In this document: piece by piece, positions 37,299 through 62,639 of the stretch
How positions within the stretch are numbered: position 1 is the first letter of the stretch
Layout: each line of letters opens with the position of its first letter
DNA from: an uncultured Gemmatimonadaceae bacterium
GTDB taxonomy: Bacteria > Gemmatimonadota > Gemmatimonadetes > Gemmatimonadales > Gemmatimonadaceae
Reading direction: 5' to 3'
DNA length: 64,000 bases
NCBI GenBank assembly: GCA_963740355.1
Contig: CAVUDW010000003.1
Span: forward strand, 2,496,001 to 2,560,000
Notes under the pieces: generated by a model
The model's input: the letters and a program-made list of their open reading frames with translations, nothing else
Databases searched by the model: none
What the model was told of the DNA's origin: nothing
Made by a program: the position numbers and the translations under genes

Positions 37299-37503
37299 AG
37301 AGGCGGATCATGCCGCTGAGATAAAGGGTTGCCGTAGACCCAGACGGAGACTCGGCGCGTGACCGTGGCTTCGATCGGCGCATAGTCTGGCATCGCGATC
37401 TTGATGACTTGCTGTCCTTGCGCTGCATCGTTGTCAGACCCCGTTGCCAGATTGTACGCAGAGGTTCATTCGGTTAACGCTACTCTCGAGAGTTCGTGCG
37501 CGA

Positions 37504-39267
37504 ATGTACGACCCAACAATTGAGTTGAATCGCTGGCTCGTCCCCGGGACCCCGCTCCAGGCCGGCGAATATCCCGGCGGCAAGGACACCACCGTCGCCC
37601 GCGCCAAGCTCGAGGCGCTGCTGGCGATGGGCACTGACACCATCATCGACCTCACCGAAACGCGCGACAACTTGCGCGACTACCAGGACCTGCTTCGCAC
37701 GTTGCCGAACGGTCGGTTTGTGAAGCTTTTGCGTGCACCGATCGCTGATGTCGGCGTGACCGAGCCCGCGCGCATTCACTTCATTCTCGATGTGATCGAG
37801 GCGGCGCTCGACGCGCAGCAGCGTGTCTACCTGCATTGCTGGGGCGGCGCAGGACGGACCGGAATGATTGCCGGCTGCCTGATGGTGCGACGTGGTATGT
37901 CATCGGACGCTGCGCTGGCCGAGGTGGCGTCAGGCTGGAAGTCGATGCCAAAGTCGAAGCTGCCGCATCACAAGAATCGCACCTCGCCGGAGACCGACGC
38001 GCAGAAGGATGTCGTGCGGAAGTGGGCCGACCATGAAGCCACGCGCCGCGCGCGGCGAGGCGAGAGTGCTCGGATTACCAGTGCAGTGGCGAACGACCAT
38101 AGTCGCGACACACCCGAGCGCGCCGACCTTCGACGCCGCGTGCGCGGCTGCCTGCTGGGCGGCGCCCTTGGTGACGCGCTCGGCCTCCCAGTCGAGTTCA
38201 AGTCGTACGCAGAGATCCAGAAGATTTATGGTCCCGGCGGCGTGCGCGAGCTCGCGCTCGATATGAACCTCGGCGCCGCACCCATCAGCGACGACACGCA
38301 GATGACGCTGTTCACCGCTGAGGGGATGCTGCGCGGCATCAACCGCGGCAATCACAGGGGAGTCGGCGGTCCAAGCAGTTGCATGACGCAAGCGTACCTG
38401 CGCTGGCTCGTGACACAGGGGCACATGTTGCCCAAGGACGGTGTCTTCCCTCCCGATCTCGTGCTTGGCTGGGCCGCCGCGAAGGGGCCGCTCAGCACAC
38501 CCGAGCCTACGGACCTCGTGGACTTCGACGGTCGGCACCCAGGCTGGCTGGTTCGCGTGAAGCGGCTGCACGCGCAGCGGGCGCCAGGCACGACGTGCAT
38601 CGGCTCCCTGCTGAAGGGTGGCATTCAGGGCAATCAGGTCTGGGCGAATGACCGGAAGGGTAACGGCGGCGTGATGCGCATCGCGCCGGTCGGGCTGTTT
38701 CCGAAGGCCGGTGAGGACACCGTGTTCGAGCTTGGGTGCGAGGCGGCGGGGATCACGCATGGGCATCCAACTGGGCGACTCACGGCGGGTGTGTTCGCGC
38801 TGATGATCCTGAAGCTGATCCACGGCCGGACGATTCGTGAGGCGGTGGCGGTTGCGTACGAGCGTGTGCAGCGGGAGGCGGAGCATCAGGAGACTTCGGC
38901 TGCGATGTCTGCTGCTCTCGTGTTGTTCGACTCGGGCGTTCGGCCGACGCCGGCGGTAGTCGAGTCACTGGGCGGCGGGTGGATCGCGGAGGAGGCGCTC
39001 GCGATCTCGATCTACTGTGCGCTACTCGGTGAGGTGGCCGAGGATGCGGAAGCGGCGATGCTGCTGGCTGTCAATCATGGTGGGGATAGTGACAGTACCG
39101 GGAGCATGACGGGGCAGTTGTTGGGGGCGCGGTTTGGGGACGAGGTTTTGCCGGCCCGGTGGAGAGCGGTCGTTGAGTTGCGCGATGTGATCGAGCAGGT
39201 GGCGGATGATGTGGTGACCGAGTGGCGAGAGGATGGGGAGTGGTGGGGGAGGTATCCGGGGTATTGA
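37504..39267 (+). CDS. Fusion of a Cys-based (PTP/dual-specificity) phosphatase and an ADP-ribosylglycohydrolase (DraG/ARH)
   Basis: N-terminal PIAD loop and HCWGGAGRTG (CX5R); C-terminal GDALG, SDDTQMT, GNGGVMR, THGHP, GDSDSTGS; one open frame. Confidence 0.9.
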   Translation: MYDPTIELNRWLVPGTPLQAGEYPGGKDTTVARAKLEALLAMGTDTIIDLTETRDNLRDYQDLLRTLPNGRFVKLLRAPIADVGVTEPARIHFILDVIEAALDAQQRVYLHCWGGAGRTGMIAGCLMVRRGMSSDAALAEVASGWKSMPKSKLPHHKNRTSPETDAQKDVVRKWADHEATRRARRGESARITSAVANDHSRDTPERADLRRRVRGCLLGGALGDALGLPVEFKSYAEIQKIYGPGGVRELALDMNLGAAPISDDTQMTLFTAEGMLRGINRGNHRGVGGPSSCMTQAYLRWLVTQGHMLPKDGVFPPDLVLGWAAAKGPLSTPEPTDLVDFDGRHPGWLVRVKRLHAQRAPGTTCIGSLLKGGIQGNQVWANDRKGNGGVMRIAPVGLFPKAGEDTVFELGCEAAGITHGHPTGRLTAGVFALMILKLIHGRTIREAVAVAYERVQREAEHQETSAAMSAALVLFDSGVRPTPAVVESLGGGWIAEEALAISIYCALLGEVAEDAEAAMLLAVNHGGDSDSTGSMTGQLLGARFGDEVLPARWRAVVELRDVIEQVADDVVTEWREDGEWWGRYPGY

Positions 39268-39363: not shown

Positions 39364-40715
39364 TCACTTTAAGTGCTTTGATATCTTCGCTGTCATTTCA
39401 AACATCGTCACTGAGCGCTGACCGAATATTGCGAACAATTTATCGTCGGCCAGGATAATCCTCTTATTCGCGGGATCCTGCAATCCGTGCTTCTTCACGT
39501 ATGTCCAGAGAGCAGACGTGACCTCTGTTCGTGGGCGAGGGTCAGCGCCGATGACTGCCGCCAGCTGCGGAGAGATCTTCATCAGCTTATTGAATGAGCT
39601 CTTCGAACGAGCTTCGCCACGTTCTGACATCGTGCCATTTTCTGAGTCCATTCTGCTCGGTAAAATGTCTCTGCCGGCTTGCACGTTTTGCTCGTTCAAG
39701 GTCGCGACGCTGAGACTGTTACGCGACGGAATCAGTGCGATCGTATTCGAGCTATTTCTCGCGCTATGCGGAATTCGCGCCGACCCCAGTCCGAGCGAAT
39801 CAAGAAGGTCCGCATCCATACTGGCGAAAGTCCACACCCCATCTCGCACTCCTGCGAGAATTAATGCTTGAACAAAATCTCGTATCGATGGATAACGGTC
39901 ACTGGGTTCGCGATTTAAGGCCGTGGAAAATACGTGCGTTAAAGCCGGAGCGTGCTCATTGTCAAAATGCAGCTCTCGTTCGTCGAGTACTTGCTCTGAA
40001 ATGCGGAGCTGTTCAGTTTCGTATCGCGACACCTTTGCACCAGGAACATACCCAGTCAGGCATTCCCATAGTGTGAGCGCGAAGGCGTACTGGTCAACGC
40101 TCGGTGTAAGGGCCGCTGATGGGTCAAATTGCTCGGGAGCGAAATAGTAGTATGTGCCAACCACGTAGCCCACGGTGGTGATCCTCGGATCGATTGCGGC
40201 CCGTGAGATTCCGAAGTCGAGAAGTTTTGCGAACGCGGTCTGCCCGTTAGCAAGAATGATGTTCGCAGGCTTGATGTCACGGTGCACAATCGGGGGGTGC
40301 TATCGTGCGCGACGCTAAGCGCGCTGCCAACCGCGATTGCGAGCTCAAGAAAGGCGTCTGAATCGAGACATCCGTCATCTTCAAGCTTATTTAGTAAGGT
40401 AATTCCGCTTACATACTCGAAGACGATGTAGAATGCACCGTGCTTATGTCCGAGCGACGGCAAGGTTTCTTCCTCGCCATAGTCAAGCATGCGGACTATG
40501 TGGTCAGAACGAAGCCGCCTCGATGCGCTAACCTCCGCATTGAACCTGCTCCGTACCTTTCCCTCGCGATCCAACCGGTCCATGGGAATAACTTTCACGG
40601 CGACATTGGAATTATCAGGGGCCAAAGCGCGCCAAACGGTGCTCGTCCCACCGGAGCCGATCTGATCAATCAACCGGTACGCATTTGCGAGCAGGCACAC
40701 CACTGACTCAACCAT
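39364..40715 (-). CDS. Hanks-type Ser/Thr kinase fused to a C-terminal SWIB/MDM2 domain (one indel in the G6 run at 40292-40297; ~450 aa if restored)
   Basis: IGSGG, VAVK and YIVFEY in ORF 40056-40715; VHRDIKPAN, DFG and APE in ORF 39364-40287; tail ISPQLAAVIG..PRTEVTSALWTYVKKHGLQDPANKR.I.ADDKL..MFEM..ISKHL is a typical SWIB domain. Confidence 0.88.
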
Positions 40716-41325
40716 CAGTCTTCAGTCCTCGTGCCGTCATTAGCACTGTCAATTGTTCTTGTACTCCCGAAAGGCTGATGCCTACCTGCGTCGCTGCAAA
40801 GGCAAGCGTAAGTTCGCAGAGGGCTGATCTAAGCGGAGAAAGCAACCGGGATTTATCTGCAACGTCGGTCTCAAGGCTTGGGTGAAAGATAGCGTTACGC
40901 GCCCCATAAAAGAGCGAACCCAAGAGGGCAAAATGTCGCGATTGGAGGCTTCTGCCGATTGCCACTTGCTCCACAAGCTCGACGACTGACGATTTCAGAC
41001 GCTCTATGTCCGATAGTGACGAAAGATTAAACCAAGCTTCGAAATCCTCACGATGAAAGCTTCTCTCAATAGCGCGCAGGGATGAGATGAATCGTTTCAA
41101 GTGTGGAAGATCAGATAGCGCAAATACCCGAAGCACATTCTCTATCGCCAAAGCAACCTTCTTGCGGCCACTCTCTGTCCATGCGGCTGGCCAAGAACTT
41201 TCGAACGCACGCCAAAGAACGAAAATGTCGTCGAGAATCTCTTCGGGAATATCCTTGGGACCTTCACGCGCCAGGACTCGGCCGACGCGACGGAGAATGA
41301 CTACAGATACTTGAGGCGAAGTCAT
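40708..41325 (-). CDS. Putative HEPN-domain protein
   Basis: Helical 205-aa ORF with FVLWRAFE and a C-terminal RNAIFH (Rx4H); stop overlaps the kinase start (ATGGTTGA). Confidence 0.6.
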   Translation of the reverse strand: MTSPQVSVVILRRVGRVLAREGPKDIPEEILDDIFVLWRAFESSWPAAWTESGRKKVALAIENVLRVFALSDLPHLKRFISSLRAIERSFHREDFEAWFNLSSLSDIERLKSSVVELVEQVAIGRSLQSRHFALLGSLFYGARNAIFHPSLETDVADKSRLLSPLRSALCELTLAFAATQVGISLSGVQEQLTVLMTARGLKTDG

Positions 41326-41576: not shown

Positions 41577-42473
41577 CTATCGGCGCCCATTGCCCGCGCT
41601 CCGATACTGACCAAATCTGTTGCGCAGATCTGCCAAACCTCTTTCGTTCGGATGGAGCCTGCCCAGTACGCGGTGGCAGTTCGCGCATACAGTGATCAGG
41701 CTTGCCAGCCGAGAGTACTTCAACTTTCGGGTGTGAAGTGCCTGCACGTGATGTGCCTCGAGGCAGCTCTTGCCATCGGCACCGTAGATTGCTTCGGGCC
41801 GAACTCCACAAATCTGACAGGTGAATTTGTCTCGAATCTTTGCGTCGAGCGCCTGTGCCGCACTGCGCTTGAATGCAGTCGCTTTGACGATCCCCTCCCG
41901 CACGAGCAATGGCTTCGATTCACCGCGCAGACGGAAATGCCAAGAGTCAATGGCCGTGAAACATTGAGCAAGGAATCGGCTGGCGATAAGTATCTGACTT
42001 TGACTTGGCCCTGATTTTGTGTGCGGCCCCAGGTACATGCCGATCGTCTTCGTGCCGTTCTCGAATACCTCAACAATCGGAACGCGAAAGTCAGTGCTAG
42101 ACAAAGCTTTTGCGTACGAAGTGAGTGACCCGTCGAATTTCAGATGCTTGTCCGAGTATCGCTTAGGCTTCGCAATGTGCCTTGCGAGGTGCTTTCCAAG
42201 ATGATCGGTTCGTACTGTACCGAGGCAAAAGAAACCTGCCCAGAAATGGTATCTGCCATCGCCTGGAAGCCTATCGAGTTGGATGGTCACACCGCGAATT
42301 CCCGGAACATTCAAGTCTCCTAGTTGCACACACCAGCCGTCAGTTTCTTCGGCAATTTCGACAACTAATCGCTTTTCGGGAACGAAGCTCTCGCTTCCCT
42401 GCGCTAAGAGTACTTCGCGAATGCCGGTCGCCAATCTTCGAGCGCTCGCACGGAGCTCTGTCTTTTTCTGCAC
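41577..42473 (-). CDS. HNH endonuclease (McrA-like C-terminus) with unknown N-terminal domain
   Basis: RDKFTCQICG..CLEAHH..LITVCANCHR. Confidence 0.85.
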   Translation of the reverse strand: MQKKTELRASARRLATGIREVLLAQGSESFVPEKRLVVEIAEETDGWCVQLGDLNVPGIRGVTIQLDRLPGDGRYHFWAGFFCLGTVRTDHLGKHLARHIAKPKRYSDKHLKFDGSLTSYAKALSSTDFRVPIVEVFENGTKTIGMYLGPHTKSGPSQSQILIASRFLAQCFTAIDSWHFRLRGESKPLLVREGIVKATAFKRSAAQALDAKIRDKFTCQICGVRPEAIYGADGKSCLEAHHVQALHTRKLKYSRLASLITVCANCHRVLGRLHPNERGLADLRNRFGQYRSAGNGRR

Positions 42474-42510: not shown

Positions 42511-43226
42511 CTACTCGCGCCAAGTCTGAGCGGTGAGAGGCAGCTCGTTCAGTTCCGCCCGAGCCTCGCGCCAAGTCGGGTAGTGCTTTTCGATCAGTGC
42601 CAGAAAGCGCTCGCTGTGCGTCGGCTCGACAAGGTGAAGCATCTCGTGCACGACCACGTACTCGAGCAGGTCCTTCGGCTTCTTCACCAGCTCGGTGTTC
42701 AGCCGGATGGTCCCCGCCCGGTGGTTGCAGCCGCCCCACTTGGTCTTCATGCGCTGCAGGAAGTAGCCGGACACCTGCACGCCGAGCTTCGGCTCCCACT
42801 TCCGGATCAACTCCGGCACCTCGGCATGCAGCAGCGCCTTGTGCCACTCGTGCATGACCGCGTCCGCTTCGGCCGTGCTGCTGCCGGGGCGCACGGTCAG
42901 CGTGATGCCGCGGTGTCGCAGCCGCACGGACGGCTTCTCGTCCCCTCGACGACCGAGAGCAGATAGCGCCGTCCCCAGAGGTAATGGCTCTCACGCTCGA
43001 CGAACTGGCGCGGCGTCTCCCGCGCCTGCCCCAGCAGCTTCGCCTGCTGATCCCGGATCCAGCCGAGCTTCGAGATCGCATAGGCCCGCGCCACCTCCGG
43101 GCGCGTTCCCGTCGGCGCGACCAGCGTGACGCGCCCGTTCGGCGGGTGCACCGACAGGTGGACGTGCTTGACGTCCTTGCGCGTCACGGCGATGGCGATG
43201 TCACCGAGCTGGATCGTCTCGGTCAT
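42511..43226 (-). CDS. YgjP-like (DUF45/M48-like) zinc metallopeptidase typical of type I R-M operons (frameshifted ~42945)
   Basis: RKDVKHVHLSVHPP, MKTKWGGCN, IRLNTEL, YVVVHEMLH (HExxH). Confidence 0.88.
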
Positions 43227-46200
43227 CAGTAGCCCGGCTGGTTCTTGATGATCTCGAAGAGGGCCAGCGTGGCCTCGCGGTCGCGGTCAGGAGCGGGAAC
43301 AGCGCGTTCAGCACCTGCGCCTCGCGCGCCTGGTCACCCTTCCAGCCTGCCGGCGCCTGCTCGCGCATCACGCGGTCGATCTCCAGCGCCAGCTGCCGCC
43401 TGTCTCCTCGGCACCGGCTCGGGGCACCCGAAGGTCGTCCGCCGGCAGCGAGCCCAGGTTGTTGTAGATCACCGTCGCCTCGCGCTTGCCGTGCAGCGCC
43501 GCCGGAACGCCTTCGCCGGCTGCTTCGCCGCCAGCCGCTTCACCAGCGCCTCGGCCTTCTGCAGGAACTCCTCGTAGGCCGCCGCGTCCGCCCGGCTCTG
43601 CTTGATGAGGTCGTCGAGCAGCTTCGACATCTGCTCGTAGAACCGGGGGTCGGTGAGCTGGTCGCGGATGATGGTCTTGCGGACGTTGTTGATGATCCCT
43701 TCGGCGATGGCGTTCTTCGAGAGCTTGCCCTTCTCGTTGAGCTTCTGGCGATGGCGTCGTGGATGCCGGTCTCGATGATCAGCTCGGTCAGCGACATGCT
43801 CGCCCAGCTCGCCCAGGTCAGCCGCCGGGTCGGCCTGGACGTAGGTGTTGAGGAGGTGGCGCATGTCCGCCTCGTAGGGCTTGATGTCCAGCTCCTCGCC
43901 CGAGTGCTTCTTGATGGCGGAGCGGATCTCGCTGTAGAACTCGACGTCCTTCTGCAGCGCGGCCGCTTCGGCGTCGGAGTAGCCGGCCTCCGTCGAGGTC
44001 CTGCGCGATGGCGGCGTAAGGCCCGCACGAAGACCGCCACGGCCTTGTAGAACGACACCCGCAGCGCCTCGGTCTCGTTCAGCGCGTTCGGGTTGGCGGC
44101 GTCGCCGCAGAAGTAGTGCAGGAACTGCTCCACCTCGCGCGGCTGGGCCACCGGCTCGCACAGGTAGCGCAGCGCCTCGCGGGCCTCGTCGAGCTTCTTC
44201 TTGCCCTCGTCCAGCCAGTCCTTGAGGTGGACGTTGTTGCTCGGCGTCGCCGCCGCCCCGTCGATGTCCAGCTCGTCGGAGCTGTAGACGGCGATCGCCT
44301 CCTGCACCTCGCCGAACAGCTCCTTGAAGTCGACGATGTGGCCGTAGTCCTTGTCGTCGCCGTCGAGCCGGTTGGTGCGGCAGATGGCCTGGAACAGGTT
44401 GTGGTCGCGCAGCTCGTTGTCGAGGTAGATGTAGGTGCAGCTCGGCGCATCGAAGCCGGTCAGCAGCTTGCTCACCACGATCAGCAGCTTCAGTTGGCCG
44501 GCTCCTCGATGAAGCGGCGCTTGGTCTCGTCCTCGTACTGCTTGGTCGTCTGGCCCGTCGCTTGAGGACGTGCTGGGTGTAGGTGTCGAACTTGTAGCGC
44601 TCGTCGCTGTTGGCGGGCTCGCGCGAGATCGCGTTGTGGTTCGGCTCGTACGACGTGATGATCCCGCAGTACGGGCCGAAGTTCGTGTTCTGGAACAGCC
44701 GGAAGTAGTGGCAGGCGTCGTAGATCGAGGCGGCCACCAGGATCGCCGTGCCCCGGTCGTTGTTCAGGCGCGGCTTGAGGCTGAAGTCCTCGATGATGTC
44801 GGCGATGATGCGCTGCTTGCGCTCGCCGGCGCTCATCAGCTCTTCCATCGTCGCCCAGCGCTTGCGCAGGACCGCCTTCTGGAAGTTGTTCAGGCCCTTG
44901 GTCTTCTGCTCGAACCATGCGTCGATGGCGCCCTGGCGACGTGAGCCGCTGCGGCACGTCGCGCGCCTCGTACTTGAGGTCGAGCATCACCGCCGTCGGC
45001 CACGCGCCTCGTGGAACTTGTAGGTGTGGATGTAGGTGCCGAAGACGTCGCGCGTCATCAGCTTGTCCTTGCGCAGCAGCGGCGTGCCGGTGAAGCCGAT
45101 GAAGATCGCGCCCTCCAGCCAGCGCTTCATCTGCTTGTTCATGTCGCCGCCCTGCGTGCGGTGGCACTCGTCCACGAACACGTAGAAGCGGCCGTTCACG
45201 GCGGGGCCGGTCCCTTCAGGTCGGCCGCGTCGAACTTGTGGATCAGCGCGCACAGGAGGCGCGGCGTCGGCTGCGCCGAGCTTCTCCACGAACTCCGCCC
45301 GCGAGGTGATGCGCGGCGACGGCGACTCGGCGCCGATGACCCCGGCGTTCTTCATCACGCCCTCGATCTGCTTGTCCAGCTCGTCGCGGTCGGTGACGAC
45401 GAGGATGCGCGCGTCGGGGTCGTGCTCCAGCAGCCACTTGGCGATCAGCACCATCAGGATGCTCTTGCCGCTGCCCTGGGTGTGCCAGATGACGCCGCCC
45501 TCGCGCTTCGCGATGCGCTCCTGCGCGGCCTTGACGCCGAAGAACTGGTGCGGCCGCGGCACCTTCTTCTGGCCGGCGTCGAAGATGATGAAGTTGCGGA
45601 TCAGGTCCAGCAGCCGCGCCTTGTTGCACAGCTGCGCCAGCGGCCGGTCGAGCAGCGCACCGGCGGCGGGCGCGGCGCCGTCGCCGGCGCCTCGTCCTTC
45701 CACTCCACGAAGAACTGCTCCGGCGTGCCGGTGGTGCCGTAGCGCAGCCCCTGCGAGTCGCTGCCCGCCAGCACGAGCTGCACGGTGCTGAAGAAGCCCT
45801 TGTTGAAGATCTCTTCCTGGTTGGTGATGAGCTGCCGCACGCCGTCGGCCAGCTCCACCGAGCTGCGCTTCAGCTCGATCACCGCGATGGCGAGGCCGTT
45901 GACGTACAGCACGATGTCCGGCCGGCGCTCGTAGCCGCCCTTCAGCGTCACCTCCTCGGCCAGCGCGAAGTCGTTCTGCTCCGGGTGCTCCCAGTCGATC
46001 AGGTGCACCGTCTCGTGCGCCTGCCCCGCCGCGATCTGCACCGGCACGCCATAGCGCAGGAGCTGGTAGGTGCGCAGGTTGGCCTGGTAGAGCGTGATGC
46101 CGGTCGACGTCGGCGGCGGTCTCCAGCTTCTGCAGGGCGGCGGAGATGTGGGCATCGGAGTAGCCGCGGGCCGTGAGGTTGTCGCGCAGTAACGCCGTCT

Positions 46201-46337
46201 CGATGCGCCGGTTGTTCTGACCGCTTGTTCCATTCGCCGAGGTAGCGGTAGCCGAGGCAGTCGGACCGCTTCGCGTCGGTGAACAGGTCGATGACACGGT
46301 TCTGCGTCTCCCGTTCGGAACGCGGTATCTCGGCCAT
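43226..46337 (-). CDS. hsdR: Type I restriction endonuclease subunit R (multiple frameshifts)
   Basis: [15 protein letters not shown] nuclease motif, [42 protein letters not shown] across frames. Confidence 0.93.
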
Positions 46338-48299
46338 CAGCTTCCCGTCGCCGAGGACCTTCGTCAGTCACGTACTCGCCGGAACGGCCGAACCGGTCGT
46401 GAAGCACCGGAACCCCGCCTCGCTGGCCAGCGCCAGGTCGCGGGCTCCTCGTTCAGCAGCACGGCCACGGGCTGGCTCAGCTCCTCCTGCAGCCCGTTCG
46501 GCCACGCCAGGTCGAACACCGCCTGCTGCTCGCCGGTCTCGGGTCCGCGAAGTCGAAGGACATCGTGCCCCGGGGCAGGCCGGCCTGCGCCACCCAGTCG
46601 TTGAGGTCGAGCAACGCCTGCTCCTCCTCCTCGCTGGTGATGCCACCCGTCGTCGTCGCCGCCAGGGGCAACGCCGCCGCAGGGCCGTCCAGCCAGCGGG
46701 TGTCGCCGTGCAGAAGCTCCTCCATCCGGGCGTTCAGCTCGGCCGCCAGCAGCGCCTTGCGGGCCTCCAGGAAGTCGCGGAAGTTCTCGATCTTCCAGAG
46801 TGTCGGGTCCGTCGGGATCCACTGCGAGGCAAGCGCACCGGGGTGGGCGGCCTCGATCTCGGGGAAGTACTCCTCCGGCAGGCGATCGCTGATCTTGAGG
46901 TTGGTGTCCTTGGTGAGGAAGCAGAAGTTGGCCAGGGCATTCACCTCGGGGCGACGGTACTTCCGCTTGTAGAGCTGCGCCTTGGGGAAGATGTGATGCA
47001 CCTCCAGGCGGCTCATCTTGCCGAGCAGGCTGGCCTTGAGCGGCAGCCCGGTGCCCCAGTCGCGCGACTCACCCATGCGGGTCAGCAGGTAGAGCACCGG
47101 ATAGAAGCGCGCGCCGAGGCTCCAGCCGGTGAAGTGCCCAGGCTCCGCACGCAGGCCGCCGTGCCAGAGGCGCAGCTGCTCCAGCAGTCGTCCAGCCCGC
47201 CCTCGTCGCCTTCGAGGGCGGCGAGGTCCTGGTCGATGAACGACTCGGTGGAGCCGGAGAACCGCCCCCACATGCCCGCCTGCACAAACCAGAACAGCAG
47301 CTTGTCGCGCTCCTTCTCATCCATGGGGCCGAGCTTCCGCCTGCGCTGGTCGAGGTAGCGCACCATCACCGGCACGCCGAAGCGCCCGAAGAACACCTGG
47401 TCGTGATCGAGGCCCAGGCGGCCGCCGATCAGGTTCAGGCAGGTGTCGATGTGCTTGGTGGCGCGCTCGAGCGCGTCCTGCACTTCGGCCGCGCTCTTCT
47501 CGTGCAGGTGCAGGAACTTGGCCTCGCCGGTGAGCACCGTGTTCACCGAGCGCAGCAGCCAGTCGAGGTTGAAGTGGTAGCCCGACCTGCTCCCATTCCT
47601 TGAGCTTGGCCTTCATCGCATCACGGCCCTCGGGCCAGTCGGCGCAGATCTTGGCCAGCGCCAGGTCACCCTTGGACAGCTTGGTGCCGCCGCTGTTGAC
47701 GCGGTTGAAGATGTCCACCACCACGTCGAGCGTCTTGTCGGCGCCGGTGACCTCTTCGATGTGCAGGTCGATCTCGGTGATGCCGAGGATGCGCTGAGAT
47801 CCGGCCAGAGTACTTGATCGCCGTTCGGGCCGACGCTCAGGGTGCGCCGCAAGCTCGCGTCCACGAGACTGCCCAGGCCGGCGCTGCCCATCCTGCATCA
47901 GCTCCGTGACGTCGATCCAGAGCGGATCGTCCTTCATCTTCACCGGCTGGTAGAAGTCGAAGGCTCCTCTCCAGGTGAAAGCGGAGCCCGGTGAAGGCCT
48001 GGGCGTTGCCGTCGAAGAACTTGGGCGGCTTGCCGCGCACCACGCCGTAGAGCGAGGTCATGCGCTGCTGGCCGTCGAGCAGCAGCTTCACCACGCCGGC
48101 CGCCAGCGGGCCGTCACCGCGATGGGTGGCGGTCTTGCGATTCCGTGGCCCAGACCAGCAGGCCGCCGACCGGATGGCGGCGGTAGAGCGAATCGAACAG
48201 CCCGCGCACCTGGTCGCGGTTCCAGACGTAGCCGCGCTGGAACTCGGGCAGCGCCATGTGGCCGCTGTCGATGTGGTCGAGGATGGTGGAGATCTTCAT
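46337..48299 (-). CDS. DUF262 (GmrSD-like) protein with HNH/DUF1524-type C-terminus (multiple frameshifts; 3' end approximate)
   Basis: [26 protein letters not shown] (DUF262); [20 protein letters not shown]. Confidence 0.87.
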
Positions 48300-49514
48300 A
48301 CCAGGCGGGTCCTCCCGGTGAGCAGCTCCTGCATCATGCCCTGCTTGAGGGCGCGGGTCTTGTCGCGGCGGGCTTCGAGGGCGGTGAGTTCGGCGTCCAT
48401 GTCGGAGAGGACCGCGGCGATGGCGGTTTGCTCATCCTTGAGGCCTGGAATCCTGGCAGGGGTCAAGTGCTGCTTGGAGATTCGGTATGCGCCGCGTTCC
48501 GCGGTAGCTCCGAAGCTGATGCAGGCCTTATGCCTGTCGTCAGAAAGCGTAGTAGAGGAATCTCGGATTCGACGGCGGCGGGCTTGGGACGAACACTCTC
48601 CGAACCGGTTGGTCGTAAATGCGGATCGTCCGATCGCAGCATCCGCATCCGACTAGTGCCGTGTTCCAGCCTCGTCGATGATCAAGATCGTCTTCGTGAG
48701 CGACATTCTCTGACTCGCGAATGCAGCCCCGGGGATGTGATCGCCTCGCCGTGGCAACAAGCTGGCCACGTGCAGATATCACCGACTCTGGGTGAGGGAA
48801 CGCGCCTCTTGGCTGCTCTTGCCTCGTGCTGCGCACCCAACGCCTGCTTCATGTCGCCGACACGCTGCCCCAACCGCTTCACCTCCCACTCCCCCTGGAA
48901 GCCGGGGAGGCGGGTCTGGCCGGTGAGGAGCTGCTGCATGGCGGCCTGCTTGAGGTCGCGCTTCTTGGCGATGAGCCGATCCAGCCCGCCCAGCAGCGCA
49001 TCCACATCGCTCAACGCCGCCGCGATGGCGCGTTGTTCGGCGTCGGATTCGGGAACGGGAACGCGAGCGGCTTGACGTGTTTGTTGTTGATCTGCGGAAC
49101 GGCGTGGTATCGGCGAATCCTCCAGAGCTCAATGTGACCAAGGGCGTAGTACAGATACTCGGACTCGAGCCCATCCTTAGGCGTTAGCGCCATAAGGTTC
49201 GGTCCATGAACGACGGGCCGATTCTAGAATCCGACCTTGTTCAAGGCGATGGCGGCGCCCCTCTTCGCGAACAGCACGCTCGTTCCGGGGACGCTCACCC
49301 GACATCGAAGGCTACGGGATGTCGGTGGCGTCGAGATACTTCTCGGCATTACTGACTGTCGACTTTGAAGGACGGAATACCGTCGCCCGAAAATCGGAAC
49401 AGCGATGGGCTCCGCCGCTAGTGATGCGCCCAACTTCGCCGAGCGGCTTAACTTCCCAGTCCTCTGGGATGACCCCAGCCGTCGGTCTGCTTGTAGCCCG
49501 GCCTTCACTTCCAT
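48296..49514 (-). CDS. hsdS: Type I R-M specificity subunit S (multiple frameshifts)
   Basis: Starts MEVKAG..IPEDWE; central LSDVDALL..LIAKKRDLKQAAMQQLLTGQTRLPGF; terminal KQGMMQELLTG.TRLV; two lower-GC TRD segments. Confidence 0.9.
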
Positions 49515-51936
49515 GACGCCCCCATCTTCTTCAGGTGCTCGTCCACCCGGGCGGCGAGCGTCTCCACTTCGTCGGTGAGCTTCGGCAGCGGCGTGGCGTA
49601 GCGTTCGGCCAGTTCGCGGATGCGGCCGGTGAGGGTCTGCGAGACGCGGTCGAGCTCGCCCTGCACGGCGGCCGACAGCCGCGCCATCCACTTGTCGTCC
49701 ACCACCAGCGTCTTGATCTCGGCCTCGGTGAGCTTGGGGTACTTGGCGTAGGCCAGCTTGTCGAGCGCGGCCTCCTGCTCCTTCACGGCGCGCTTGAGCG
49801 TCGGTCTCGCGGTCGGCAGCTCCAGCCATCGCTCGAGCACCGCGGCCTCGTCCTTGCGCGTCCTTGTCGCCCTTGATCTCCTTGAGCCGGGCACTGACCT
49901 CGGCCTTGGCGATCTTGTCCAGCTCGCCGAGGAAGCCCTCCTCGCCGCCGTGCTCTCCTCCAGCTCGGCGAGCGTGGCGGTCGCAGCTTCCAGCTCGGCC
50001 TGCGTGCGCCTCGATCGCGGCCTGCTCCTTGGCGAAGTAGCGGGCGACGATCAGCGGCTTGGGGACCAGGTCGCAGGCCCAGCCCTTGTCCTTGCGTCTT
50101 GCCCTTCTTGTCGGTCTCCAGGATGCGCGCCGGTCTTCGCCACCCAGCCGTCGGCGGCGATCAGGTAGGCGTCGTCCTGCATGGTCTCGGCCCAGTAGTC
50201 CATCAGGTGCTGGTAGACGTCGTAGGCGTCGAGCAGCGGCGCCTGGCGTGAAGGCGGCGAGCAGGTCCTCGGCGATGGTCTCGATCAGCGCCTTGGGGTG
50301 GCCGTCCTGGCCGAAGCCGGTGAGGCGCGGCGTCGTGGCCTTGCGCCAGTCGGCGAAGCGCTGTCGTCGCCTGCTGCTGAAGGCGGTGAACTCGGCGTGG
50401 CCGAGGATGGCGGGCTTGACCTCGGCGCAGCGGCAGCTTCAGGCGCGCGTAGCCGGGGCGGCCCGCGCGACTCGAACAGCGCGCCGCGCACGCCGGGCAG
50501 CACCTCCCAGTAGCGCGCCGAGCGCGTCGAGGTCGCGCTCGGGGATGCCGCCGCGCAGGTGGCCGTCGATGTCCTGCAGGTCTTCGGGCTCGGTGCTGTC
50601 GATGTAGCGCGGCAGGTTGAGGTTGAAGTCGTTCTTCGGGTCGGCGATCTCGGCGCAGCGGCACCATGCGGGCGTAGCGCGGGCACGTCGGCCTGCCTGG
50701 TGAAGGTGTCGACGATCCGGTGGATGTCCTGCTCGCGCAGGCGGTTCTTGTTGCCGTCCTTGATGAAGCCCTTGGAGGCGTCGATCATGAAGACGCCCTT
50801 GCGGGCGGCGGCGTTCTCCTTGTCGAGCACCAGGATGCAGGCGGGGATGCCGGTGCCGTAGAACAGGTTGGCCGGCAGGCCGATGATGCCCTTGAGGATA
50901 GCCGGAGCGGACGAGCTGCTGGCGGATGACGGCCTCGGCATTGCCGCGGAACAGCACGCCGTGCGGCAGGATGCAGGCGCCTTTGCCCGTGCTCTTCATC
51001 GAGCGGATGATGTGCAGCAGGTAGGCGTAGTCGCCCTGCTTGGCCGGCGGCACGCCCCAGGCGAAGCGCTGGAACGGGTCGTTCGCCGGCGTGAGGCCGG
51101 TGCTCCAGGTCTTGTCGGAGAACGGCGGATTGGCGACGACGTAGTCGTAGGTGCGCAGCTGCTCGCCGTCCTTGAACTTGGGCTCGGCCAGCGTGTTGCC
51201 CGGCAGGATGTTGGCCGTCGGGAAGTCGTGCAGGATCATGTTCATGCGGGCCAGACCGGCCGTGGTCACGTCCTTCTCCTGCCCTTCGAGCGTGATGTGC
51301 TTGCCCGCCTCGGCCGCCACCTTCAGCAGCAGCGAGCCCGAGCCGCAGGTGGGGTCGTAGGCGGTGGTCGACGCCTTGGTGTTCGTCCGGCGAGATGCCG
51401 ATGACCTTGGCGATGATGCGGCTGACCTCGGCCGGCGTGTAGAACTGGCCCTTGCTCTTGCCGCTCTCGGTGGCGAAGTGCCGCATCAGGTATTCGTAGG
51501 CGTCGCCCAGGATGTCGTCGTTCTCGGCGCGGTTCTGCGAGAAGTCGAGCTCGGGCTTCTGGAAGATGCCGATCAGGTTGGTCAGCCGCTCGACCATCGC
51601 CTGGCCTTCGCCGAGCTTGTTCGGGTCGTTGAAGTCGGGGAAGTCGCTGCGGGCCAGGCGGGCGTTGGCGTCGATCAGCGGCTGGATGATCTGGGTGTTG
51701 ATCTTGTCGCCGATGTCGCTCTTGCCCTTGAGCGCGATCATGTCCTTGAAGCTGGCGCCCTTCGGGATGGTGACCGGCGGGGCGAAGTCGTCGCTGTTGC
51801 CGTACTTGTCGGTGATGTACTTGATGAACAGCATGAACAGGACGTAGTCCTTGTACTGGCTGGCATCCATGCCGCCGCGCAGTTCGTCGCAGGAGGCCCA
51901 GAGGGAGGAGTAGAGGTCGGATTTCTTGATGGCCAT
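49505..51936 (-). CDS. hsdM: Type I R-M N6-adenine methyltransferase subunit M (multiple frameshifts)
   Basis: LWASCDELRGGMD, GDAYEYL, GQFYTP, DPTCGSGSLL, VVANPPF, LPHGVLFRG, NLNLPRYI. Confidence 0.95.
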
Positions 51937-52065
51937 GTGACGCGTGGTGGGCAAGATTGTATTCGCGACTGTCTGTCAGGATAAGCAGACGTCAGTGCGG
52001 GTCGATGCTTAGCCATCGGAGTGTACGGGCGAACTCGGCGCACAGCAACCAGCCCTAGGCAGCTG

Positions 52066-52810
52066 TCAGGCGCGGAGCTTCGCGGCCACGTACGACAACA
52101 GAGTGCGCGCAGCGTTGATCATCAGCATCGCTTCCGGTGCGGCCAAGAGTTCGTCATTCGGGTGCGCGACACTCGCTCTGTTTCGCACCGGATCGAGTTT
52201 CGACACGATCGTAGCCAGAGAAAGCACGATGCTATCGACATCCTCGGCCCGTGGCCCGCGAACCGCGAACGCCGGATGCGCAATGCGAACAGTCTTGAAG
52301 CACTGAGTGAGGCCGGCATCCTTGTCTACGGTAAGCCCCGCTTGCCTGCAGACAGCAATCAGATGTCCATGCAGCGCGGTATGGAGGCGATCGACACCGC
52401 TGGTCGCTCCGCTCTCCCTCAAGAGTGCCTCTGCATCGCCTAACGCTCGAATCACAACTGCGCTTGTTTCCTGAAGGTCTGGGGCTGCGACTGACTCAGC
52501 ATCCAGCAGGATTGATGCTGTCCTCTCAAGCTCGACCCTTAGCCGCTCACCTCTACCGTCGGCGGCGCTCCCATTCCTCCCTCCGCGAAATCTCGCCAGG
52601 ACGCCGCGAATATCGCAGCTTGTTCTCGGGGAGACGCCTGAGACAGGATGGCGATGAATCGATTGCGCGTAGTTTGCGCAGCAAGAGATTCAGGATCGGA
52701 ACCCAGTCCGCAAAATTCGGGGCAGACTCCTTGTGAGTCTTATACGGGAAATCGCCGAGAAATCCTGGGTTCGGCTTCACCGATCGAACGATTTGAATTT
52801 TCAGATGTCC
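52066..52810 (-). CDS. Abortive-infection family protein (Abi_C-like C-terminus); 5' part frameshifted or decayed, start uncertain
   Basis: DAEALL..SGVDRLHTALHGHL..C..LDPVRNRASVAHPN; upstream GFLGDFPYKTH lies in another frame. Confidence 0.65.
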
Positions 52811-53183
52811 CGTTGCGACAGGCCGTTCGCCATCTTCGGCTCCTAAGACATCCAGCAGAATTCGTGGGCGTGGCCAATCAACAGCGGATATCGCGGGGTA
52901 GCAGGTAGCTTCGGGAGTCGTCCGCATTATCCTTGCTCCCGAGGCCTCAAGGTACCGCATCCAAAACGTCTTCAACGCGACTTCGTCGGCTGTACCTACC
53001 TCGGCGTCGAGAGCAACCACACACACGCCTCGCAAGTCGGGAAGCAGCCCATTGATGCGCGGCTCTCAATCCATGCGGCGTTCGGCATTCGTTGCGTCGT
53101 TCCATGTCAAGTTGCGAAGTTGAATGAGCATGTCTGACAGAGTAACGAGCACTGGCGTTCTTCGCGCACCGGAACGGGCGTAG

Positions 53184-53620
53184 TCAGAGGTACGGCGAAG
53201 AAGACCAAGATGTCTGTCGATGTGACCTTCTCATGCCGGCAGTATCTGTCATGCTAGTGGCCTTCATTCGAGCAAAATCCTTGAAGGTCTGCAGCTCCAA
53301 TCGCTCGCGAGTGAATACAGTTGGTGGACGTCGAAGTTGTGGCACGTTCCCACGCCACTCGCGAACCGAGTCTGAGTTCGTGCGGAACGTTTCGATGAGT
53401 GTGATCTCGTCATCGAATGAAAGGCTTTCCACCAGTGCCGCGATGAATACCCGCTATCGCGCATCTGCTGTGGTTTTCGCGATGCCGAGCGGTCGATGCC
53501 AACCATCCAGCGTGTGCTGGCCGGCGACGTCGTCTGAGCACCAAGGCACGCTGGTCCGAGCAGGAGCAGGAACGCGAGTCCCTTTCTCACGACTCGTGCG
53601 AGTATCAACACGAGAATCAT
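53184..53620 (-). CDS. Secreted hypothetical protein with a vWA-like DxSxS motif (frameshifted, extent uncertain)
   Basis: Signal-like segment followed by WMVGIDRSAS; continuation SLSFDDEITLIE in the adjacent frame. Confidence 0.35.
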
Positions 53621-53668
53621 GCGGCTTGAGTCGTGAGCTGATCCGCGATTCTCTCGATTCGATGAGAT

Positions 53669-55253
53669 TCATTTCGGAGCAGTGCCAATTCGTCTCGCGA
53701 CGGAGCGAGGGTTTCGGGTTCCGTATGAGCACGGAATCAGTGAGGTCGTCGAGAGGCATGTGAACTTTCTGCTGGAACGCTGCAATATGCTTTGGGTCAA
53801 TTCCGCGAAGACTTGCGTTTTCTGCACGCCATTTGGGAATGATGCCTTCGAATGCGATCGCTTGGCTTCGATCGTTGCCAGTGGCTTGCTACGCATCAGA
53901 CTGTTCACGCGTGCACAGGGCAGCTTCTCCGAGCCGTACTTGCTCTCTTGCATCCGAGGTGTAGCGGAGGAGTCGCTCTCGATTCGAGAGACACTTTGCC
54001 TTGAGAGGCTGCAGGTCAGGGTGCTCACCGCGAGTTCGTCAATTCTCGTTTGTTGAAAGAAAGCCAATGAGAAATGCGGCCCCAACGATCGCGATGTTGA
54101 GAGAAGAATCGCGAGGTTGTTGTCCTCGACTGTCTGCGCGAAGGCAACGAGATCTCGTTTTGCTTGACGTTCGCGAGCAATCGCTTGACCGCTTTCATGA
54201 TATCCAGCATTTCCGCTTCGTCCTTCAACTGAATCGCCAATGGCCACGCGCCGCGCCTGCTCCCTTGAGAAGAGTGCTTCCGCTTCGTTAAGTCGACCAG
54301 TGGCGACATGATTGGCGTTGTGCCGCGCCATCCAAAGAAAGGTTGTAATCAGAATGGCACAGCCCGCAGCCACCCCAAGTACAAGCCGCTTCTGCCTTTG
54401 CAGCGAGCGAATCGACTGTGCGCTGAATGGATAGTCCTCGGGCTTCAGTGCTGAGAGGACCCGGCCAGCGACACCTGATTCTTTGCCCGCGATAAAGAGG
54501 ACGACAACCACCGCAATCGCAATGAAGGTGGATTCAACGCGCGTTACAATTTCAGATCCCAGCCAGAGACAAGCCAGCCGCGAAGACCCCCTGGGTCGAC
54601 GCGGATTCGATGGCATCAGCGGCACTGCGCTCAATATTCGCACTGAGCGGCCAGATGATTCGGAAGATCGGTTGGTTTGCGATGAACTCTACGAAGATCA
54701 GGAGCACGGTCAGAGTGACTTTCAGCCACGTTGGCATGAACGCGTCGTACTTGACGGGTTGAATCTCTTTCTCCGTCGCTTTCCGAATTTCCTCGATACG
54801 TCGCTCTGCGTCAGCGAGTTCCTCACTCGCGATTTTTGCCTCGGTTACGGACGCGCGGCCGTTTGCAACACGCTGTCCGAGGTCACTCGCTTCTGAATCA
54901 ATCGCATCCTGCATTTTGACCTTAGTTCTCTCCGGCCAGCGCTTCCAAAGTGCTGCGCAAGCGCTTGCCAGTACGCGCTCCGGTGGCAGCTGTTCATCAC
55001 CCAGTTCCGTGATGCCTGGCAGGCCCTTCTGCGCCCAGACCGTAGCGTAGGCTCGAGCCTCAGATTCGATCCCATCAAGTTCGCGCTCAAACCAGTAGTC
55101 GACTTTCTTAAGAACGCTGTGAACGCCCGAGAATTCCTCGGTATCGTCCCATGAAGTTCCAAATGCGGCCGATCCTGCAGAATCTTCCGGATGGCCATTT
55201 GTCCCGGTTTGCTCGCCGATTGAACCTGGACTAGCAGCGAACGGAGTTGTCAT
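53669..55253 (-). CDS. Multi-TM coiled-coil hypothetical protein (probably one gene split by frameshifts)
   Basis: ORFs 54552-55253 and 53669-54643 overlap and alternate coiled-coil and hydrophobic segments. Confidence 0.45.
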
Positions 55254-55669
55254 CGCATCGCGTTGTTGTAGGACGCCGCTGACATAGCACGGTCAGCTGG
55301 CATTTTTTAGCTGCATACGGCAACCCATGAGGCTGCCAAGAAGGTAACGTAGTGTTCCGATTCTGTCGAACGCACTGACGCATTTGGTTGATATATCAGG
55401 CCACAGCATGGCAAGATCGCGTTGCCGATGGCGCTCATCTCCGCCGAACAATTGATAGCATTCCGCGCGCGTGCGTATAGCCCGAAGACGGCGCCGACGG
55501 AGATAGGCTTCGGTTCCGACATGCTCGCGCAGCGGCAGAGCCCTTACGCGTCGCTCCCGCAGCTGAAGGTGGCGACTCAATAGGCGACCCGGCTCTGCCT
55601 GAGCGCGATTCTAAGCGCATGTGCTCGATTGCTCATATCTCGAACTGCTAGGCGATCTCACACAGCTCC

Positions 55670-56248: not shown

Positions 56249-56371
56249 AGTGCGCTCCAGTGTTATGAAGATTCGGTTATTTGCTCATATGCTCTGTGCC
56301 TGACGAGCGTTGTTGCGTCTCCACAGCTCGGCAATGCGCCAACTCGGTGCCAACGTCGGTCATATCCATCA

Positions 56372-57016: not shown

Positions 57017-57072
57017 CGTTGAGATCCTGAACCCCCGCGAATCTCTCCGGGGTACGACTGCACGCGTCGCGG

Positions 57073-58192: not shown

Positions 58193-58330
58193 GCGGCTTT
58201 CCGCGTCAGAATTCTGAATTCGACCCGAGAGCACTATGCACCCGGGACCAGACCCCGTCGAGTCTGTCTCTGAACGCTACCATTCCGGTCTGACACCGCC
58301 GTCCTAATACATCAGCGCCGACGCGAAACA

Positions 58331-62217: not shown

Positions 62218-62232
62218 CGTTGTTTCTGCAAG

Positions 62233-62304
<72 letters not shown>

Positions 62305-62639
62305 AGACCTCTCACTTCGCACCACCCGCACCACCTTCAAGCCGCGCACACTCGCGAGTGCGAGCCAGCGCTCTCTGCGCCCGCGCCAACCGCAGGAGTC
62401 GCGCCACGCCAGCTCCGCAGGTCTCTCGTTGCTAGCCCCATTCCACGCCGTGGCAGACACCCCCGCCTCGATAGCGCGAATTGCCCGTCTCTTGCCCATG
62501 GCACGTTCGCGAATCATGACGCCCCCGCTGAACCCCGGCGGCATCAGCTCGAGCGCAGGTCGTTCAGCTTCGCGAACGGACCGAACCATGCCTTCAAGCG
62601 CCGCGCGGCTCCGGAAGCGGAACTGGAGCTCTAGTGATT

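Follow-up and report, generated by a model that had tools for sequence, protein, structure and literature searches.

A candidate two-gene module pairing a HEPN-like protein with a Hanks-type kinase of variable C-terminal tail in Gemmatimonadaceae

Within the 64,000-nucleotide stretch of Gemmatimonadaceae DNA analyzed here (the window), two adjacent genes encode a small helical protein carrying an R-x4-H motif (ORF A) and a Hanks-type Ser/Thr kinase that ends in a SWIB domain (Table 1). The reading that we favor, with modest confidence, is that they form an uncatalogued two-gene module in which a kinase regulates a HEPN RNase, a candidate conflict system of the abortive-infection or toxin-antitoxin type. 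The original prediction for this DNA had joined a HEPN-like gene and a kinase-SWIB fusion into one unit; the HEPN-kinase pair proved to be conserved, but SWIB is only one among several interchangeable C-terminal modules. As judged from the sequences of the loci compared below, the conserved unit is the HEPN-like protein together with a kinase with a variable tail. That the module has a defense phenotype, specifically an anti-phage function, is something we infer.

Table 1. Positions of the module's features in the window
Feature	Position	Strand	Basis
HEPN-like gene, ORF A (205 aa, P0001), first of the pair	40708..41325	-	ORF; homologues; AF2 model
Codons of R143-N-A-I-F-H148-P-S-L-E-T153, predicted RNase active-site motif and invariant Thr	40867..40899	-	Family-wide motif
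Gene overlap, 8 nt, ATGGTTGA	40708..40715	-	Read directly from sequence; translational coupling
Kinase N-lobe (intact-protein residues 1-141)	40293..40715	-	Pfam Pkinase, E 1e-12; identical to P0002 1-141
G6 run (intact allele: G7), sole frame break of the kinase gene	40292..40297	+	Comparison with P0002
Kinase C-lobe (HRD, DFG, APE) and ~85-aa linker	39589..40291	-	Pfam Pkinase, E 1.2e-17
SWIB/MDM2 domain, divergent copy of the standalone SWIB of the host genus	39370..39588	-	Pfam

The two genes are arranged as originally described, with the kinase start at 40715 and the stop codon of ORF A at 40708-40710. The Hanks kinase motifs listed in the original prediction were all found (IGSGGTS, VAVK, HRDIKPAN, DFG, and APE), and K41, E61, H145-R146-D147, K149, N152, and D167 are invariant in an alignment of 16 kinases (alignment A3). 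The maximum Kyte-Doolittle hydropathy over 19 residues is 1.31 in the intact kinase, which therefore has no obvious transmembrane segment, again as first stated. That intact kinase is P0002, a 450-aa protein from another assembly that reads HDSTPPIVHRDIKPAN across the break point. The N-terminal part of the window's kinase is identical to the first 141 aa of P0002 and the C-terminal part to its last 310 aa, confirming that one missing base is the sole break; a real frameshift in a gene without homologues, the concern attached to the prediction, did not materialize, as the intact allele exists. Because this allele is otherwise identical, an error in the assembly or a recent lesion at the strain level is a likelier cause of the split than long-standing decay. 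Homopolymers are a classic site of long-read consensus errors.

The local copy of the module may still be dead, given that its kinase is frameshifted and that neighboring genes are also in pieces within the next 10 kb (YgjP in 2, hsdR in at least 3 frames, hsdM in 2), with the YgjP break not located at a long homopolymer. On this account the G6 run reflects a genuine frameshift, the island is in decay, and what this genome carries is a defunct relic of the module. We consider this somewhat unlikely. Apart from the one base, both kinase halves are 100% identical to P0002, so the kinase has not decayed further; the break lies in a homopolymer, in a genome assembled in only 5 contigs; and the account concerns the local copy alone, not the nature of the module.

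The pair lies in a low-GC block, as predicted, with a GC content of 0.54 at 39-42.5 kb versus 0.63-0.68 in both flanks. Its description as part of a defense island was borne out in part: YgjP, type I restriction-modification genes (hsdR and hsdM), an HNH gene, Abi_C, and an HD protein are nearby. A scan of the flanks for repeats and tRNAs detected a single tRNA-Phe gene (62232-62305) and, around the low-GC block, just short, chance-level repeats. The HNH gene (41577-42473) was considered as a third component and ruled out, because the remaining four loci at which the pair could be read gave no match to it at E ≤ 1.

The family of ORF A is rare and is labeled "hypothetical protein" by its sources. 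A full HMMER search of 1.8 billion representatives, needed because a word-indexed protein search returned only ORF A itself, identified 27 further clusters, whose homologous representatives are ~170-230 aa long. The RNAIFH motif of the original prediction is present as R143 to H148 and extends, across the family, to R-x4-H-x4-T in 30/31 members, the lone exception being a 122-aa fragment. R39, E42, W98, W127, Y140, R143, H148, T153, and R166 are nearly invariant. The residue following the motif Arg, usually Asn, Asp, or His, is Asn in the window's protein and in 9/30 members, Cys in 20/30, and Ser in 1. The module is sporadic, occurring in 3/401 genomes of the family Gemmatimonadaceae, and a pattern scan for the ORF A family on viral contigs gave no confirmed member in 99 stretches.

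The AF2 model of ORF A is all-helical (pLDDT, 93.4; pTM, 0.90). Helix 129-146 has R143 at its end, H148 lies in the loop that precedes helix 159-181, and E42 (≥90% conserved) lies within helix 27-43. In HEPN proteins, R-x4-H is described as spanning the junction between a helix and the loop that follows it; an acidic residue is conserved in the N-terminal hairpin helix, and a helical insert is present (PMC3710099). The layout of ORF A fits this description, as the motif site, E42 in an N-terminal helix, and the insert between them all correspond. In a VIA-align comparison with 48,161 chains, all ten matches at Z ≥ 5 were HEPN proteins (1wwp, 1jog, 8xdj, 7ae2, 1ylm, 5yep, 6of2, 9bj5, 2hsb, and 8jbc), although their Z scores of 5.0-6.8 are modest, in a range that helical bundles often reach by chance according to the tool's own warning. 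In a second structural look, AbiV (9bj7) was the best match.

Profile and database searches did not lend further support. Foldseek found no match to ORF A in the PDB at E ≤ 0.001, and a profile search of solved-structure sequences returned noise, the best hit (E 0.049) being a plant homeodomain protein. No HEPN match was detected by Pfam at E ≤ 1 for any of the 28 family members, for which only subthreshold noise such as UBA_N4BP1, RNPP_C, and MauJ appeared. Local hhalign against 14 HepT-like proteins from relatives aligned the Rx4H stretch alone (P 0.059) and gave no sequence-profile link to PF01934, and PADLOC models produced no match for 4 family members. The nearest named-Pfam cluster in a protein-atlas search was HEPN_RiboL-PSP (score 0.82), which we treat as no more than a lead. 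The claim that the upstream protein is HEPN-like was supported in part, by the HEPN-type bundle in the model and the family-wide R-x4-H, although it gained no profile support and the structural scores are modest. ORF A is probably a HEPN-type RNase.

The closest points of comparison among known HEPN proteins are HepT, AbiV, and the KEN domains of Ire1 and RNase L. HepT/MntA likewise consists of a small HEPN RNase gene and an adjacent enzyme gene, and HepT structures (8xdj, 7ae2, and 5yep) are among the best ORF A matches. Its published criteria are an RX4HXY toxin motif and an adjacent MNT with GSX10DXD (PMC7641770), whereas ORF A is partnered by a Hanks kinase rather than an MNT nucleotidyltransferase. 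The motif is R-x4-H-x4-T, and the residue at H+2 is Ser, Arg, Asn, Gly, or Thr throughout the ORF A family, never Tyr. The HEPN gene also comes first here, and its product carries a ~70-aa helical insert. AbiV, a lactococcal standalone helical HEPN defense protein of similar size, aligned with ORF A over the greatest length (9bj7; Z 6.1, 130 aligned residues; 9bj5, Z 5.2), but at 11% identity there is no sequence similarity. AbiV has no kinase partner and, according to PMC3710099, typically lacks the motif His. In Ire1 and RNase L, a protein-kinase fold occurs together with a HEPN RNase and with a distinct sensor module, and the state of the kinase (or pseudokinase) domain controls the RNase. 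They are, however, single polypeptides with KEN at the C terminus, rather than two genes with HEPN upstream. PMC3710099 classes KEN as HEPN and lists these proteins only for eukaryotes, and KEN structures are absent from the 50 best structural matches of ORF A. We regard the likeness to Ire1 and RNase L as analogy rather than demonstrated homology.

Pairing of the two genes, the co-occurrence asked of the original prediction, was observed at all five readable loci, each with the HEPN-like gene followed by a same-strand Hanks kinase; this count leaves ~23 other family clusters outside it. No other gene is common to the five loci in an all-against-all comparison of ORFs of ≥100 aa. The junction varies, with a 4-nt overlap at L017 and gaps of 23-30 nt at G525 and G047. 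The kinase tails vary as well: two are SWIB domains, one is a NACHT/AAA_16 STAND NTPase with a long C-terminal region (a 1578-aa protein), and two contain no Pfam domain. Among 122 kinases, P0158 and P0156 were the best two matches of the P0002 kinase domain, and the window's kinase is the top-scoring locus of its own genome for 3/4 partner kinases. The pair at G047, which carries the second SWIB fusion, adjoins a ResIII helicase, GmrSD_N, and a DNA methylase, and that at L017 adjoins IS21 IstB; no clear defense neighbors were seen at G525 and L018 (2/5 loci). Pattern scans of genome contigs for more loci confirmed none of 38 stretches and then 1 of 18, which was the G525 contig.

The SWIB domain of the window's kinase is complete, as first reported, covering positions 1-74 of the 74 in PF02201 (E 1.4e-26; 92.5 bits versus a 25-bit cutoff). 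It is 77% identical to the standalone SWIB protein of its own genome and 48% identical to the other kinase-fused SWIB, and the two fused domains are each 77-78% identical to the standalone SWIB of their own host. In the phylogeny, each tail nests inside the clade formed by the standalone SWIB proteins of its host genus, the window's among the proteins of genus g1 with support of 100/99. The HEPN partners of the two SWIB kinases are only 28% identical and fall in different well-supported subclades. Since the SWIB domains follow the host genus and the HEPN partners are so distant from each other, this pattern indicates that SWIB was captured from the host independently, twice, in an analysis of two fusions and 74 alignment columns with long terminal branches (0.31 and 0.25). 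The standalone protein has an AKKA-rich (Lys/Ala-rich) tail, and the fused copies consist of the globular domain without it. A search with the SWIB region for other kinase-SWIB proteins gave 5 matches among 46 candidates, with a kinase only in P0002; its sensitivity was low, as it missed the fusion in G047. SWIB domains were also found in a ParB-SWIB protein in G047 and in topoisomerase-SWIB matches of the same search. A literature search found no report on SWIB together with a kinase and anti-phage activity.

In the mechanism that we propose, the cytoplasmic HEPN-fold protein would be a probable metal-independent RNase using R143 and H148, and the same message would also yield an active Hanks Ser/Thr kinase. 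This enzyme would set the activity of the RNase, by binding or by phosphorylation, in a direction that is so far presumed. A plausible phospho-acceptor is the invariant Thr five residues past the catalytic His, proposed by analogy with the AMPylation by MntA of the Tyr in the HepT RX4HXY motif. Precedent for enzymatic modification next to an Rx4H motif as a control on a HEPN toxin comes from HepT/MntA, in which MntA modifies the adjacent hydroxyl residue and silences the RNase (PMC7641770), and a kinase is reported to act as an antitoxin in TakA/TglT (PMC7205606). The interchangeable C-terminal module of the kinase (SWIB, STAND NTPase, or another domain) may serve in sensing or targeting and would couple kinase control to a signal of infection, presumably by sensing phage. 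In the SWIB versions, the host nucleoid-type SWIB could be bound by a protein from phage (or another source) that serves as the signal, or the signal could be the SWIB partner itself.

Much of the same evidence could describe a selfish, type VII-like toxin-antitoxin addiction module, in which the kinase constantly neutralizes the HEPN toxin by phosphorylation with no phage sensing. The pair would then stabilize mobile low-GC islands, and the C-terminal domains would merely localize or regulate the kinase. The translationally coupled two-gene operon, the low-GC or mobile contexts (GC 0.54 versus 0.65 here; IS21 IstB at L017), the sporadic distribution (3/401), and the HepT/MntA and TakA/TglT precedents are in keeping with such a module. 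Large sensor-type tails, such as that of the 1578-aa kinase-STAND protein, and the repeated capture of host domains are hard to explain in this way and are typical of immune sensors, and a HEPN gene in first position is an unusual toxin-antitoxin order. We therefore judge a purely selfish role unlikely, while noting that it overlaps with the favored explanation because the boundary between toxin-antitoxin and abortive-infection systems is blurred.

A further alternative is an ordinary signaling pair. The helical protein would then have no catalytic role and would serve as a regulator, scaffold, or substrate of a Hanks kinase of the housekeeping type, which SWIB would anchor to the nucleoid for the phosphorylation of chromosome proteins. 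Gemmatimonadaceae are rich in Hanks kinases (20-41 matches per genome, with about 40 in this lineage), the HEPN assignment was not confirmed by the Foldseek, solved-structure, and hhalign searches, and bacterial SWIB is found on chromosome proteins (the AKKA-rich tail, ParB-SWIB, and topoisomerase-SWIB). A signaling pair of this kind would not be expected to be rare, patchy, low in GC, and adjacent to restriction-modification and Abi genes, nor to have R, H, and E nearly invariant at the exact HEPN catalytic positions. The tails are also swapped between close relatives of the module, unlike those of core signaling kinases, and we consider this alternative quite improbable.

The catalogued defense kinases (Stk2, PD-T4-6, PglW, and mad6) share with the window's gene a Hanks-type Ser/Thr kinase, a defense-island setting, and PADLOC models that match the kinase domain. 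The matches are generic, none of these systems has a SWIB tail, and a HEPN-like partner is absent from them as represented in PADLOC. It is very unlikely that the kinase is a catalogued single-gene PD-T4-6 (or Stk2-like) system with ORF A as an unrelated neighbor: the PD-T4-6 models do match P0002 (E 1.7e-55; 186.8 bits), but the match spans the generic kinase domain alone, ORF A homologues lie beside the kinase at 5/5 loci, and PD-T4-6 membership was rejected because three other, unrelated kinases of the same genome reach 284-303 bits on the same models. With the HEPN-like protein lacking a PADLOC model and the PD-T4-6 match of the kinase being generic, no catalogued system was found to account for the pair, in agreement with the original suggestion of novelty. 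The HEPN-like/kinase pair is likewise not described in the accessible portions of PMC3710099, PMC13092281, and 10.64898/2026.01.04.697583.

A more specific version of the kinase-regulated HEPN RNase module is that of an integrated-decoy immune kinase: the captured host SWIB would bait phage proteins, whose engagement would switch the kinase and release the HEPN RNase. Host-domain copies in immune proteins have been discussed as possible pathogen targets, and a decoy has been proposed for bNACHT11 (PMC11702601). As in plant NLR integrated decoys and the bNACHT11 proposal, an immune-type protein here carries a copy of a host domain, with the fused SWIB tracking the host genus; unlike in plants, the carrier is a kinase rather than an NLR, and the decoy role is suggested by phylogeny. 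We regard this version as speculative and improbable at present.

If the pair is indeed a kinase-regulated HEPN RNase module, it would constitute a new architecture in bacterial immunity, in which a Hanks kinase with swappable sensor tails controls a HEPN RNase, and would offer a prokaryotic parallel to the way in which kinase and RNase are coupled in Ire1 and RNase L. Should the SWIB tails prove to be decoys, the integrated-decoy logic of plant NLRs would be joined to that of Ire1 and RNase L in one prokaryotic system. The host-tracking SWIB offers a concrete, testable case of a host domain copied into a candidate immune protein, and it points to the little-studied bacterial SWIB proteins as likely nucleoid factors and possible phage targets. 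The HEPN-like family now labeled as hypothetical would, if the module is confirmed, gain an annotation.

The HEPN-like gene of the window (ORF A, product P0001) overlaps the kinase gene by 8 nt (ATGGTTGA), both genes lying on the minus strand. Pkinase was matched on both frames of the kinase gene (Pfam). An intact 450-aa allele, P0002, is carried by a 25,986-bp contig of another assembly; its first 141 and last 310 residues are identical to those of the window's protein, and its sequence spanning the break point reads ...HDSTPPIVHRDIKPAN... Because P0002 otherwise matches exactly, the sole lesion in the kinase is one G lost from a run (G6 at 40292-40297). The window's copy of the pair may be broken or mis-assembled. 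The overlap and the single missing base had been read correctly in the original prediction, as had a complete SWIB/MDM2 domain at the kinase C terminus (profile positions 1-74 of 74, E 1.4e-26, Pfam), the lack of a membrane segment (none indicated by hydropathy, maximum 1.31 over 19 residues), and the low GC of the block (0.54 at 39-42.5 kb versus 0.63-0.68 around it).

The setting is a defence-type island, as foreseen, given the R-M, Abi_C, HD, REase-ARP, HNH, and YgjP neighbors, though a battered one. The breaks over 42511-51485 reflect either error-prone local assembly or real island decay; the YgjP gene is interrupted away from any long homopolymer, and long, intact ORFs occupy the window's left 37 kb. 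The phosphatase part of the 607-aa fusion is of the "Swiss Army Knife" and polymorphic-toxin PTPase families, and the second low-GC block holds several further ORFs without a Pfam match.

Coordinates of the gene pair, its neighbors, and SWIB-related genes elsewhere (positions in the window unless another locus is named)
Feature	Position	Strand	Remarks
ORF A	40708..41325	minus	205 aa; TGA stop within start of kinase gene
Hanks kinase gene, two frames	40056..40715 and 39364..40287	minus	directly after ORF A
DSP-type phosphatase + ADP-ribosylglycohydrolase fusion	37444-39267	+	607 aa; adjoins pair on left; normal host GC
298-aa protein	41577-42473	minus	weak C-terminal HNH match (E 4.7e-4), N-terminal part unassigned; in the pair's low-GC block, on right
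YgjP-like metallopeptidase	42897-43226 and 42511-42927		split in two; right of pair
Type I R-M hsdR	43469-46452		split into at least 3 frames; right of pair
Type I R-M hsdM	50285-51485		split into two; right of pair
Second low-GC block	52000-58300		GC 0.56-0.59; further right
Abi_C protein	52066-52689		second low-GC block
HD_4 protein	55670-56284		second low-GC block
REase-ARP	57428-58276		weak match; second low-GC block
Standalone SWIB protein of the window's genome	G000:C3:2419338-2419586		short; AKKA-rich (histone H1-like) N-terminal tail, then SWIB domain
ParB_N + HTH_ParB + SWIB fusion (Pfam)	L031 (G047:C1:534054-537272), ORF 1486-3219	minus

Including the window's genome (G000), the pair could be read at five loci, and at 5/5 a Hanks kinase gene is next on the same strand after the HEPN-like gene. 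An all-against-all comparison of every ORF of at least 100 aa found only the HEPN-like protein and the kinase common to the five; the HNH protein, considered as a further component, was rejected, as none of the other four loci encodes a match to it at E <= 1. The pairing is conserved and the tail is not.

The five readable loci of the gene pair
Locus	HEPN-like protein	Kinase	Junction	Neighbors
G000	P0001, 205 aa	450 aa, SWIB tail	8-nt overlap	HNH, YgjP, type I R-M
G047 (same family, another genus)	P0153	P0154, 468 aa, SWIB tail	30-nt gap	ResIII helicase, GmrSD_N protein, DNA methylase
G525 (MAG titled Gemmatimonadaceae)	P0160	P0159, 386 aa, tail without Pfam domain	23-nt gap	not clearly defence
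L017 (metagenome)	P0155	P0156, 1578 aa, NACHT/AAA_16 STAND tail	4-nt overlap	IS21 IstB
L018 (metagenome)	P0157	P0158, 496 aa, unassigned tail	overlapping	not clearly defence

When the P0002 kinase domain was compared with 122 kinases, P0158 and P0156 were the two best matches and P0154 was 11th. Among the loci of G000, the window's kinase scores best for P0156 (100 versus 89 bits) and P0158 (120 versus 110), and for P0154 only with its two frameshift pieces summed (123.7 versus 88.2); P0159 did not match it at E <= 1e-8. The kinases look active, judging by the invariant catalytic residues in a 16-kinase alignment. The module is rare: it occurs in 1/41 relatives (E <= 0.001), 2/401 genomes sampled phylum-wide, and 3/401 family-wide, and none was confirmed on viral contigs.

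Three other features of these loci were recorded. By eye, P0154 (about residues 315-365) and P0159 (about 318-375) share a Trp-rich stretch after the kinase domain (W..EDNR...G.FW ... W.Y ... W.T.D), absent from the window's kinase, that may be a further small module. The long C-terminal region of P0156 (L017 6579-11315) contains near-identical short, EPMDGEVVS-like peptide repeats. Immediately upstream of the HEPN-like gene of G525, and overlapping its longest frame, a 159-aa ORF (L027 2044-2523) weakly matches the DUF2204 nucleotidyltransferase (E 0.0035), recalling MNT-HEPN pairs.

A word-indexed search with ORF A returned nothing besides ORF A itself. A HMMER search of 1.84 billion representatives added 27 clusters (122-233 aa), with 13 proteins, query counted, at E <= 1e-10. 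Ten clusters looked up were "hypothetical protein" or unnamed, the closest being from Gemmatimonas sp. By these sequence searches, the family is real and rare. Its alignment has nearly invariant R39, E42, W98, W127, Y140, R143, H148, T153, and R166, and R-x4-H-x4-T is present in 30/31 members, the only member lacking it being a 122-aa truncated entry. The motif Arg is followed by C in 20 of the 30, by N in 9, and by S in one.

The original assignment of ORF A as HEPN-like held in part. The Rx4H is kept family-wide, and the AlphaFold2 model built from a 28-sequence alignment is all-helical and confident (pLDDT 93.4, pTM 0.90). A search of 48,161 chains independent of Foldseek gave ten matches at Z >= 5, all HEPN proteins (MNT-associated HEPN/HepT toxins, YutE, Las1, AbiV, AF_0298, and the Csm6 HEPN domain), with scores of 5.0-6.8 that lie under the tool's safe level for helical bundles. 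HEPN is stated in the entry titles of 8xdj, 7ae2, 9bj5, and 2hsb; 1jog, 5yep, 6of2, and 8jbc are HEPN proteins as well. The available portion of PMC3710099 lists 1wwp and 1ylm as HEPN. In a second structural look, AbiV ranked top, with 130 residues aligned at Z 6.1 and rmsd 4.5, followed by an unrelated apolipophorin (Z 5.5). Support was not obtained from Foldseek (no match at E <= 0.001), from HEPN Pfam families (none matched by any of 28 members), or from profile-profile comparison with 14 HepT-like proteins, where the aligned stretch was Rx4H only (P 0.059, not significant). In the model, R143 ends helix 129-146, H148 starts the next loop, E42 is within the N-terminal hairpin, and a helical insert separates two hairpins, a layout described for HEPN in the same portion of PMC3710099. 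Based on the consistent hit list and this motif geometry, ORF A is probably a HEPN member.

The kinase matches the PADLOC kinase models PD-T4-6, mad6, PglW, and MkoA. The match is unspecific, since three other G000 kinases get far higher scores from those models, and membership in PD-T4-6 was rejected. No PADLOC model was matched by the four ORF A family members scanned. The portion of PMC3710099 consulted gives a kinase-KEN fusion for eukaryotes only and does not mention a bacterial operon of HEPN and Hanks kinase genes, nor do the consulted parts of two recent papers on defence discovery mention a HEPN-kinase pair. No publication was found combining SWIB, kinase, and anti-phage. The HEPN-like protein and a kinase with a variable tail form a candidate new two-gene system, the core of which is supported; SWIB, part of the system as originally predicted, is not a fixed component. 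A defence function of the pair is putative.

The genes for the HEPN-like protein and the active-looking kinase form an operon, with exchangeable tails and in island settings. In the proposed mechanism, the HEPN-like protein would be an RNase effector or toxin controlled by the kinase, with the tail supplying the input. The invariant T153 (H+5) and a Ser at H+2 (17/30 members), both in a loop modelled with less confidence, are candidate phosphoacceptors. According to the accessible parts of two reports, MntA AMPylates a Tyr within the RX4HXY motif of HepT (PMC7641770) and TglT is neutralised via phosphorylation by TakA (PMC7205606). By analogy with these precedents, enzymatic control beside the catalytic His would be plausible.

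SWIB was matched in 17/21 genomes of genus g17, to which G047 belongs, and in 0/14 control genomes of well-known organisms; the standalone SWIB protein is conserved in the lineage. Compared with six further species of the genus, the G000 standalone domain shows 94.6-97.3% identity, and the protein looks like a conserved nucleoid protein. The fused domains are 77% (G000) and 78% (G047) identical to their own hosts' standalone copies, versus 48% between the two fused domains and 60% between the two standalone copies. In a 28-row SWIB tree, the G000 fused domain falls inside the standalone clade of its genus, g1 (support 100/99), and the G047 fused domain lies within the g17 group, where the nested nodes have supports of 100/99, 91/92, and 90/77; both are on long branches. 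The HEPN partners of these two systems share only 28% identity; each belongs to its own supported subclade, and systems lacking SWIB lie between the two. The simplest reading of these sequences is that a host SWIB domain was captured twice independently or converted repeatedly by the host copy. As judged from GC3 in G000 (0.64 for the fused SWIB versus 0.92 for the standalone gene) and 67% nucleotide identity, the capture is not recent, implying that protein similarity has been kept by selection. Homology starts right after the Lys/Ala-rich tail, so the globular SWIB domain alone would have been taken.

SWIB is also joined to ParB domains in G047 and has been found joined to topoisomerase domains, which fits a nucleoid-associated interaction module. 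The 713-aa database protein P0125 has ParB_N, HTH_ParB, and SWIB as in the G047 fusion. In the SWIB versions of the kinase, the domain might serve as a decoy or tether the kinase to the host's own SWIB protein or a partner of that protein, and either role would explain why the domain tracks its host. This independent, host-tracking capture of SWIB is the most surprising result of the analysis.
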